Notes under the pieces: generated by a model
Seen by the model: only the letters and a program-made list of their open reading frames with translations
The model's database searches: none
Told to the model about the DNA's origin: nothing
Program-made: the position numbers and the translations under genes
Assembly (NCBI RefSeq): GCF_030384885.1
Contig: NZ_CP128613.1
Length of the DNA: 64,000 nt
From: Escherichia coli
GTDB lineage: Bacteria > Pseudomonadota > Gammaproteobacteria > Enterobacterales > Enterobacteriaceae
Direction: 5' to 3' (one strand)
Shown: positions 18,490-20,664 of the stretch, piece after piece
How positions within the stretch are numbered: the stretch's first letter is position 1
Layout of the letters: every line of letters begins with the position of its first letter

Positions 18490-19100
18490 TTAAGTGAGTA
18501 GGCCACCGGAACCTCCCCGACAGCCTCTCGCAGAACCGTACGTGAAACTCTCGCTTCATACGGCTCCCGTCAGGCAAACGCGCTTCCTGGTCCTGCTTTC
18601 CAGTGGGCAAACAACTCCGGCTTCTCTTTTGACAGCCTTTCCATTAGCTGACACGCCTTCGTCTTTCTATACCGCAGGGTTTTATATTTCTTTCTCGCCC
18701 ACGCAATCAGCGTCAGATTAATATATCTGCATACTTTCTTCATCGCTGATTTGTGGTATCTCGCGTAATAATTCAGCCACCCCAATATTATCGGATTCAG
18801 CCACTTCGCAATATCTTCGAGACTCATCTCCACCCTGCGTCTGATCCACAGTTTCCTGAGTTTTCCAATCATGCCTTCGGGTTTACTCATCTCACTGTAT
18901 CTCACATAGGATCAGATCTCGTCTGATCGTTCCCCCTGCGCTCACTACCATGGCTCTTTACCACAGCAGCCGGGGTTGTTTGGGACCGACTTCCGACAGC
19001 AGATCCCGGTGGGCCTGCCACCATCTCTTCACAAGCTTATGCTTATTACATGCAAAACGTCCCGTTTTGCATCTTTGTGCCTACGGCACACCGTGATCTT
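18490..19100 (-). mobile_element. 5'-truncated group II intron remnant (maturase C-terminus plus RNA domains V and VI)
   Basis: ORF 18570..18905 carries a maturase-like motif (WLNPIILGWLNYYARY); downstream on the same strand, about 18532-18566, is GAGCCGTATGAAGCGAGAGTTTCACGTACGGTTCTG, which folds as a domain-V-like hairpin. Confidence 0.6.
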
Positions 19101-19395: not shown

Positions 19396-19719
19396 TTACC
19401 TCATTCTGCTTTTTTTTCTCAAATGACATATATTATATTTTACATCATATTCATAGGCATATGACATTCCCCCGCCCCCCATTATGTCATTGTGGGTTGA
19501 TGTTGGGCTTTCATAAAAAAATACATCTTTTTTTGAACTAGCATTAATTATATTTACTTTATATATTAAAATATTTTCTCCATCTGGAAATATTTTAGCC
19601 ACACAATATAAAGCAGCCAAATCCGAATTACTTAAAAATATATTGTCATCACTCATAACTCCAGCCATTAAATGACTGGAGACTAAAGCAAGGAAATAAC
19701 AACATTGTATTGCCTTCAT
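19396..19719 (-). CDS. putative immunity protein for the adjacent Rhs C-terminal toxin
   Basis: about 107 aa from internal Met (MKAIQCCYFLALVSSHLMAGV...), hydrophobic signal-peptide-like N-terminus; start codon lies 1 nt after the toxin stop with an AAGGGAG RBS; very AT-rich. Confidence 0.5.
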   Translation of the reverse strand: MKAIQCCYFLALVSSHLMAGVMSDDNIFLSNSDLAALYCVAKIFPDGENILIYKVNIINASSKKDVFFYESPTSTHNDIMGGGGMSYAYEYDVKYNICHLRKKSRMR

Positions 19720-19720
19720 T

Positions 19721-20275
19721 TTAATTACTCCCTTGCCTGATAATTGTAACTCCATTCCCTTTAGCTTTGGGATTATATTTTAGATAGGTGTTATTTGGTG
19801 TTCCCAAGTAACTACTGTATTCTTTTTTTCCCATTCCATTCATATAAGAATTCGTTAAATCTTTGCTTGAAAAATTTAGACTATCATAAACATCATTTTC
19901 TTTTGTTACTTTATTTCCTTTATCGTCAGAGTAAAAACCGTGAGTGTGATAATCGCCTACTCTCTCTGAACCTTCAGGGCATTTTATATTTCGCAAGTCT
20001 ACACTATCATTATCATTTGAACTTATCGGATTCATGGGGAAATATTCACCTTGCTTCTTACATATTAGTCCACCATATTCTTTATTCTCGTTAATTGATT
20101 CTCCATTACACATTGCCAATGCAAATATTCCAATATCATCTATATTTTTTGATTTAAATTCATATAATCCTAATGGATCCATGCCATTCACCGGGCTCAG
20201 CGGATATGTATACAGGTTCCATCCCCCCTTCAGCCCAATCGGATCCTGAGTGATATACCGCCCCTGTAACCGTCC
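19721..20275 (-). CDS. Rhs C-terminal tip: end of Rhs core (DPxGL motif) plus variable toxin domain
   Basis: reading frame encodes ...[35 protein letters not shown] followed by about 145 aa of low-GC sequence with conserved Cys/His (GDYHTHG); DPxGL marks the core/toxin boundary in Rhs proteins; no in-frame ATG at the 5' end. Confidence 0.6.
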
Positions 20276-20664
20276 TCACCGGGAAACAGGTGCTCAAAAT
20301 ACAGGCTTCTGCCGCCGTTATCACTGAGTATCAGAGTGTTATCGCGCAGCTGCAAGCGGATATCCGCAGGCATTTTCCAGCCGGGGCCGAGGCTCCCCAC
20401 CGGCGCGGGCGTTTTTGTCCGGTAACTGCTGTAGGTGCGGGAGAGGATGAACGGCAGCGGGCCGGGCAGGGCAAGGTCGGTTTCGCCGGGAAGGACCTTC
20501 GCACCGAGCAGCGGATTGACCGGATGGCCGGACGTCACCCCGCCGGGGCACACCGAACAGGCCACGCCGGTGGGGGCACCAATACGTACCCCGGCAGAAC
20601 CCTGGACAATGGGGCCACCATACTGCGTCATGTCGCCCTGACGCGCCGCCGGTTTTCCGCTCAT
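20230..20664 (-). pseudogene. Rhs N-terminal (PAAR-like) fragment, out of frame with the C-terminal tip
   Basis: 144-aa ORF MSGKPAARQGDMTQYGGPIVQGSAGVRIGAPTGVACSVCPGG... matches the conserved N-terminus of E. coli Rhs proteins for about 125 residues, then terminates. Confidence 0.7.

Follow-up and report, generated by a model that had tools for sequence, protein, structure and literature searches.

The locus between yiiX and rpmE

The window, the whole stretch of DNA that was analysed (64,000 nt), carries the E. coli chromosomal gene order metL-metB-metJ-yiiX ... rpmE-priA-cytR-ftsN-hslV, and a decayed Rhs element lies between yiiX and rpmE. Read from rpmE along the minus strand, the element contains an Rhs N-terminal ORF, a toxin tip and an immunity ORF, then fragments of IS1 and of a group II intron maturase, together with an ISAs1 transposase. 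The GC content drops from 61–69% in the N-terminal ORF to 27–33% over the toxin tip and the immunity ORF, which is the classic composite pattern of Rhs elements. The toxin side of the element comprises the following features:

20230..20664, minus strand: truncated Rhs N-terminal ORF, 144 aa, with a PAAR motif and DUF6531, ended by a premature TGA past the deletion junction
20264..20266, no strand: deletion junction with a 3-nt microhomology (blastn of the window against L001)
20165..20179, minus strand: DPLGL motif that closes the Rhs core ahead of the tip (from the sequence; aligned in the homologues L007, L008 and P0052)
19721..20164, minus strand: toxin tip, DUF4329 / Tox-JAB-2, JAMM fold, including its TAA (19723–19721)
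19940..19948, minus strand: H-T-H codons (H74, T75, H76) of the JAMM zinc-binding motif

A blastn comparison with the intact locus of strain 2013C-4282 (L001), where the Rhs gene at the same position is 4,185 nt long, shows that 3,241 bp of the Rhs core are missing from the window. Because this core deletion breaks the reading frame, the Rhs toxin gene in the window is a pseudogene, and the toxin/immunity pair is a remnant; the toxin tip and the immunity ORF themselves were untouched by the deletion and are 100% identical to the intact locus. Thus, of the toxin/immunity pair described in an earlier, sequence-only reading of this DNA, the coupling of the two genes stands, but the toxin gene of this copy has been inactivated. 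The adjoining group II intron (18570–18905) is also truncated, with a junction at 18876/18877 and the maturase end alone left; the 1,286 bp that were lost, comprising most of ltrA, are found in L001 (8392–9677) and are missing from the window. Decay resembling the window's is seen in other species (L005 77–668, and L013), where an Rhs N-terminal fragment is deletion-fused to the last part of a DUF4329 tip and the immunity gene is intact. A scan for promoters gave matches at chance level.

The toxin tip matches Pfam DUF4329 with 60.7 bits (cut-off 28.6), a family that Zhang et al. 2012 equate with Tox-JAB-2 (PMC3482391). In a 26-sequence toxin alignment, E30, H74, H76 and D103 are invariant and S100 is nearly so; all catalytic residues of the JAMM site, E...HxH...SxxD, are intact in the tip, and its AlphaFold model is confident (pLDDT 93.7).

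Directly after the toxin tip, the immunity gene and its ribosome binding site are arranged as follows:

19728..19734, minus strand: Shine-Dalgarno sequence AAGGGAG, 8 nt before the ATG, within the 3′ end of the toxin gene (from the sequence)
19396..19719, minus strand: immunity gene, annotated 'RHS element protein dsORF-f3', 107 codons plus TAA (from the ORF; identical CDS in L001)

The immunity ORF runs from its ATG at 19719–19717 to its TAA at 19398–19396, its start codon lies 1 nt after the toxin TAA, and its protein begins MKAIQCCYFLALVSSHLMAGV. An identical RefSeq CDS (WP_001612119.1; 324 nt; 100% nucleotide identity) is present in L001 at the same rpmE-yiiX locus, and the stop/start geometry is kept in other genera, either as a stop, 1 nt and a start or as an ATGA overlap. 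The downstream methionine codons M18 and M22 have no usable ribosome binding site (a GGAG stands just 2 nt ahead of M22), and the alternative 119-aa reading from the ATG at 19755 merely lengthens the n-region, leaving an N-terminus that is still leader-like. The start codon is therefore secure; the coordinates and N-terminus that the sequence-only reading had described are correct, and the strong ribosome binding site, the coupling and the RefSeq annotation place the start ahead of the hydrophobic segment, not downstream of it. Its assignment of the small ORF as a toxin-coupled immunity gene is likewise borne out by the relatives that were examined, all of which (30+ loci) lie directly 3′ of a DUF4329 toxin or its remnant. 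The immunity protein has no Pfam match at E ≤ 1 and no NCBIfam HMM match, and the name dsORF-f3 was presumably assigned by other means than an NCBIfam HMM.

The N-terminal leader and the mature domain

The immunity ORF divides into two parts:

19663..19719, minus strand: predicted Sec-type signal peptide, codons 1–19 (rule set, shuffles, clade pattern, low pLDDT)
19399..19662, minus strand: mature immunity domain, codons 20–107 (AlphaFold model m68d0033d5df5, conserved columns)

The predicted leader has an n-region MK, an h-region AIQCCYFLALV and a c-region SSHLMA, with putative cleavage at LMA↓GV, an inferred position. N-termini were assessed with a crude rule set of the von Heijne type, calling for K/R in the n-region, an uncharged 8-residue core with a mean Kyte-Doolittle (KD) value of at least 2.3, and small residues at −3/−1. 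The immunity protein passes as signal-peptide-like: K2 is the positive n-region residue, the best 8-residue KD value is 2.51 in the h-region, and there is no charge between positions 3 and 19. Across the window, the rule set flags 8 of the 47 long ORFs, all of exported type judging by their N-termini; none of the recognised cytoplasmic enzymes is flagged, and one borderline leader-like N-terminus is missed. The h-region of the E. coli protein is moderately hydrophobic, with Q, Y, S, S and H within it, and a Leu at −3 of the cleavage site is tolerated, if uncommon; besides LMA↓G after residue 19, alternative cleavage sites are VSS↓H and LVS↓S. A lipoprotein reading of the leader's QCC was rejected, as A-I-Q-C-C does not fit the lipobox [LVI][ASTVI][GAS]C; lipobox-like strings occur in a few distant relatives (LASC in L011 and ATAGC in L040).

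The structure predicted by AlphaFold2 on a 17-sequence alignment separates the leader from the remainder of the protein. In particular, residues 1–20 have a pLDDT of about 46–50 and residues 15–24 are below 50, with a disordered linker after the leader; in the mature domain, block means are 78–94, except for a loop at 71–80 (mean 52). The modelled domain has a helix (residues 31–43) and four antiparallel strands, with a GGGG loop (81–84) and a C-terminal Arg. One helix across a four-stranded antiparallel sheet is also the topology of the cystatin/monellin-like roll, and cystatins, monellin, fetuin-B and SQAPI are among the weak Foldseek matches, a resemblance of topology alone; against the PDB, Foldseek found no significant match to the model (best E 0.14, TM 0.2–0.4), and sequence searches of the PDB with the immunity and toxin profiles found nothing. 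C39 and C98 form a candidate disulfide that is conserved in the closest four subfamilies and not in more distant members.

A word-indexed search for relatives of the immunity protein returned the E. coli copies alone, and an exhaustive phmmer and profile search found diverged relatives in Enterobacter, Salmonella, Hafnia and metagenomes, with mature-domain identities of 16–52% and a Salmonella cluster of 520 sequences; scans of toxin loci added relatives from Rahnella, Superficieibacter, Buttiauxella and Acidovorax. The leader is present in every full-length member of this Enterobacterales/Acidovorax clade, conserved in its pattern and not in its sequence. K or R occupies position 2–3 in 12 of 14 clade representatives, every full-length member has 10–15 uncharged hydrophobic residues followed by a small −3/−1 site, and the predicted cleavage sites include SYA↓T, LMA↓E, LSG↓V, CNA↓F, ATG↓E and CMS↓E. 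The leaders of the relatives are just 14–44% identical to that of the window protein, the pattern recurring in at least 5 diverged subfamilies, and charged residues account for 4.8% of leader positions versus 26.9% of mature positions in the clade. A variable sequence with a constant physico-chemical pattern and low AlphaFold confidence is what would be expected of a targeting signal, and the leader of the E. coli protein appears, on this comparative evidence, to be a maintained and functional feature.

Two Salmonella observations concern proteins without an annotated leader. In Salmonella salamae (L004 3396–3440), the leader frame MKYIIFF... is split from the gene body by a frame break in a T8 run, so that the product assigned by gene callers is leaderless and 84 aa long; where the Salmonella gene is intact, it encodes 100 aa, leader included (P0085). 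As evidence against an exported antidote, a survey of Salmonella SPI-6 has 'No' in its signal peptide entries for the immunity proteins of DUF4329 toxins (PMC10469887); these entries may concern another immunity family or a start that was truncated, and a frame break of the L004 type may explain them.

The same data bear on the possibility that the protein is cytoplasmic and that its hydrophobic N-terminus is a by-product of AT-rich DNA, a buried helix, or a segment ahead of a true start at M22. The low GC content of the region favours codons for F, I, L and Y, residues 5–18 are helical in the AlphaFold model, and gene callers sometimes report leaderless forms (P0083, P0084 and P0086), all of which would agree with a cytoplasmic protein. 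However, only 297 of 20,000 residue shuffles of the immunity protein (1.5%), matched in composition, pass the rule set, so that AT-rich composition does not explain the leader; moreover, the pattern recurs across the diverged subfamilies in spite of their low leader identity, the modelled helix has a pLDDT of about 50 and leads into the disordered linker, M22 has no usable ribosome binding site, and the short Salmonella form is explained by its T8-run frame break. We consider a cytoplasmic immunity protein very unlikely.

A second possibility is that the N-terminal segment is an uncleaved signal-anchor, so that the domain would face the periplasm while held at the inner membrane. Positions 3–23 of the E. 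coli protein form an uncharged run of 21 residues, with K2 before it and D24/D25 after it, which would give an N-in, C-out orientation; several relatives have poor −3 residues (the Y in YEA and YNA) or an R or C near the site. An in silico study of EHEC also reported a weak 'TMEM126' membrane-protein motif in RhsBI of the z5488 locus, which has a DUF4329 tip (PMC7216683) and is taken to be the same locus as the window's. Against an anchor, the mean KD value over 19 residues is just 1.55, the uncharged h-region of many relatives, at 9–15 residues, is short for a membrane span, and every member has at least one plausible small −3/−1 site. An anchor is accordingly improbable, if a little less so than a cytoplasmic protein. 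Overall, the resemblance to a signal peptide that had been noted from the sequence is upheld by the rule set, the shuffles, the leader in all full-length clade members and the low AlphaFold confidence, and export of the E. coli immunity protein is the best reading of its leader, one that we hold to be quite probable.

A superfamily of immunity proteins with and without leaders

One genome per species was scanned with the toxin alignment, and the ORF after each toxin was inspected. The scan found 31 toxin loci in Proteobacteria, Acidobacteriota, Myxococcota, Planctomycetota, Spirochaetota and Cyanobacteria. All-against-all phmmer comparisons link 23 of 32 post-toxin sequences, and a profile-profile alignment of the enterobacterial group with the others (hhalign) has a probability of 91% and E = 9e-7, with the alignment starting from residue 31. 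From these comparisons, most post-toxin ORFs and the window protein belong to one superfamily that extends across many phyla. The superfamily has no Pfam match (window protein and 21 relatives, E ≤ 1) and no PDB sequence match.

The leader is not a constant part of this superfamily. Among about 27 loci whose leader status was assessed, 14 have a clear leader, 4 are ambiguous or lipoprotein-like, and 9 have none (L016, L017, L019, L020, L021, L024, L028, L029 and L032). The leaderless proteins begin where the mature domain begins in the leader-bearing ones, and these starts, together with an alignment that begins after the leader, fit a leader that would act as a removable targeting module. On a tree of toxin similarity, leaders occur throughout the window's clade (Enterobacterales and Acidovorax); within the second clade, the leader state flips between close relatives, for example between L022 (with a leader) and L020 (without), whose toxins are 79% identical. 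More broadly, L022 and L018 carry the leader and L020, L024 and L019 do not, with toxins that are 59–79% identical.

Several loci of this set have further peculiarities. At the leaderless loci among L018–L020 and L022–L024, 45–58 nt of non-coding sequence stand where the leader codons would be. Tandem two-domain immunity proteins occur at L018–L020 and L022–L024 (Acidobacteriota, Myxococcota and Planctomycetota). At L006 (1–3053), the tip of an Rhs protein resembles phospholipase A2 weakly, below threshold, and the next protein has ankyrin repeats and a lipobox (FSGC); the tail of an orphan DUF4329 toxin and an immunity gene with a leader come after these and make the locus a poly-immunity array.

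The toxin's compartment and activity

The sequence-only reading had argued from an exported antidote to a toxin that acts in the periplasm or at the membrane, and had taken this to narrow the toxin's likely activity. The first step is in part sustained: an antidote that is exported speaks for a periplasmic or envelope target, and the leader is fixed in the window's own clade, but leaderless homologues, including one of the 79%-identical toxin pair, exist at 9 of about 27 loci, and because of them export of the antidote does not fix the compartment of the toxin. The second step began from immunity to cytoplasmic nucleases, a premise that is not established here, since the tip has a JAMM/JAB metallopeptidase fold and its nuclease label is, in the sources read, a prediction.

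The closest structural neighbours of the toxin are mostly peptidases, and all of those with known chemistry are (iso)peptidases. The toxin is 10–17% identical to JAMM/MPN+ isopeptidases (BRCC36, Rpn11, AMSH, archaeal JAMM1, CBASS Cap3 and BilC) and to RadC, and differs from them in forming the C-terminal domain, some 150 residues long, of an Rhs protein. In the sources read (PMC3482391, PMC3239186), the 'nuclease/RNase' label of Tox-JAB-2 is a prediction by analogy to the gene contexts of RadC; two later papers (PMC9635880, PMC7216683) present Tox-JAB-2 as a characterised nuclease/RNase toxin, citing Ma et al. 2017. Whether this clade's toxin is a zinc (iso)peptidase on a periplasmic or envelope substrate, and not a nuclease, is in our estimate an even question, and the same balance applies to a periplasmic or envelope target as such. 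An argument in the other direction, for cytoplasmic delivery by the Rhs vehicle on account of a prePAAR/TMD, was rejected: the N-terminus MSGKPAARQGDMTQY has a PAAR string and lacks AARxxDxxxH, and no transmembrane domain could be demonstrated.

In the mechanism that we propose, the immunity protein would be made as a precursor with the Sec-type signal peptide described above, and after export a domain of about 88 residues would reside in the periplasm, where it would bind, and so block, the toxin that sibling cells deliver by their type VI secretion system (T6SS). The immunity gene of the window is an orphan, and its product could still protect against neighbours that have the intact toxin. 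Taken as a whole, an exported antidote that acts in the periplasm against an Rhs toxin is a probable account of this protein.

The main competing account accepts the leader and the export of the antidote and places the toxin in the cytoplasm, acting on nucleic acid or a protein tail; the antidote would intercept it in transit, or the precursor would work before export. Most characterised Rhs tips act in the cytoplasm. The toggling of the leader among close homologues (toxins 59–79% identical), the further leaderless loci (L016, L017, L032, L021, L028 and L029), and the homology of leader-bearing and leaderless groups in the hhalign comparison are all consistent with a cytoplasmic toxin, as is the literature that treats Tox-JAB-2 as a nuclease/RNase (PMC3482391, PMC9635880, PMC7216683). 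However, no full-length member of the toxin's own clade lacks the leader, the nuclease label derives, in the sources read, from the RadC analogy (PMC3239186), and the closest structural neighbours with known chemistry are all (iso)peptidases. For the proposed interception in the periplasm, we know of no precedent among immunity proteins. A cytoplasmic toxin with an exported antidote is a serious contender, though we give it somewhat less than an even chance.

A natural variant bears on what the antidote does for the producing cell. In O157:H7 SS52 (L041 642–964), the annotation gives an intact toxin gene of 4,185 nt with no pseudogene flag, and the immunity gene has an A7-to-A6 slip at about codon 62 and is labelled 'frameshifted' in RefSeq. 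Because the toxin gene is annotated as intact and its neighbour is frameshifted, the producer's own cytoplasm does not require the immunity protein for its protection, which favours a periplasmic target; the Rhs cage could also explain this combination. The protein database contains many truncated variants from this region (for example P0033 and P0020, which diverge after SSKK).

Among known systems, the nearest in arrangement are the immunity proteins of periplasmic T6SS effectors (Tsi1/Tsi3, Tai and Tli) and of colicin M and pesticin (Cmi and Pim), in which a small gene right after the toxin encodes a protein with a Sec leader or anchor that is taken to neutralise the incoming toxin in the periplasm. 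The window protein is like them in gene position and leader, and has no detectable sequence or fold relationship to them. It differs in its partner, a JAMM-fold Rhs tip that is no known cell-wall or lipid hydrolase, and in that about one third of its superfamily is leaderless. Imm65, a lipoprotein, is the immunity protein of Tox-JAB-1, the other JAB toxin family, and resembles the window protein in being exported and strictly linked to an Rhs-borne JAB-fold toxin (PMC3482391); compared by description only, it differs in having a lipobox, which the window protein lacks, and in its restriction to Bacteroidetes (PMC3482391). A lipoprotein antidote in this sister toxin family speaks for a periplasmic target. 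Imm-NTF2-2 (PF15631), the immunity family catalogued for Tox-JAB-2, is, like the window protein, a small alpha+beta protein that partners Tox-JAB-2 in E. coli, and its pairing with these tips counts against a periplasmic target; it has a conserved Y and W, whereas the window protein contains no Trp and has no PF15631 match at E ≤ 1.

These comparisons define what is and is not new. The gene is already annotated and common, and exported immunity proteins are a familiar kind; modestly new are the conserved leader in an Rhs immunity family, the wide and uncatalogued Tox-JAB-2-cognate superfamily, and the toggling of its leader. An exported immunity protein is the usual hallmark of T6SS effectors that act in the periplasm, and Rhs tips are mostly cytoplasmic toxins; a conserved leader paired with a JAMM peptidase fold is thus a concrete reason to re-examine the toxin's site and activity. 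At the same time, the switching of leaders among close homologues cautions against reading the target compartment from the antidote alone.

The immunity proteins also have features that suggest how they might engage the toxin. Of 34 superfamily sequences, 32 end in Arg or Lys (K and R together make up 11.7% of all residues), and alignments of the superfamily place an invariant Gly within [R/M/Q]-G-G/S in the loop that joins strands 2 and 3. In JAMM enzymes, a tail of the form ...LRGG lies extended in a narrow groove that leads to the zinc (PMC3239186), and by analogy the immunity protein may plug the JAMM groove through mimicry of an LRGG-type tail. A broader conjecture would join these elements: Tox-JAB-2 Rhs tips, at least in the enterobacterial clade, would be zinc (iso)peptidases on an envelope or periplasmic substrate and not nucleases; their immunity proteins, an uncatalogued superfamily, would plug the JAMM groove by the [R/M/Q]-G-G loop or the carboxylate of the almost invariant C-terminal Arg/Lys; and the toggling of the leader would mean that the toxin can be neutralised in the cytoplasm as well as in the periplasm. 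In this full form, the conjecture is unlikely.

Searches of phage records with the E. coli and Luteimonas toxins gave no tblastn match, despite reported secreted phage versions of Tox-JAB-2, and a distant blastn for other DUF4329 tips in E. coli genomes found this allele alone. Among 5,426 complete E. coli genomes, 2,169 (40%) carry the immunity gene, as a single chromosomal copy; the toxin/immunity pair has this same 40% occurrence, O157:H7 included, and is a system that in silico surveys routinely label 'RNase'. Identity reaches at least 99% in 2,073 genomes for the tip and in just 562 for the immunity gene, which is 95–99% identical in 1,607, such that the tip is more uniform within E. coli than the immunity gene.
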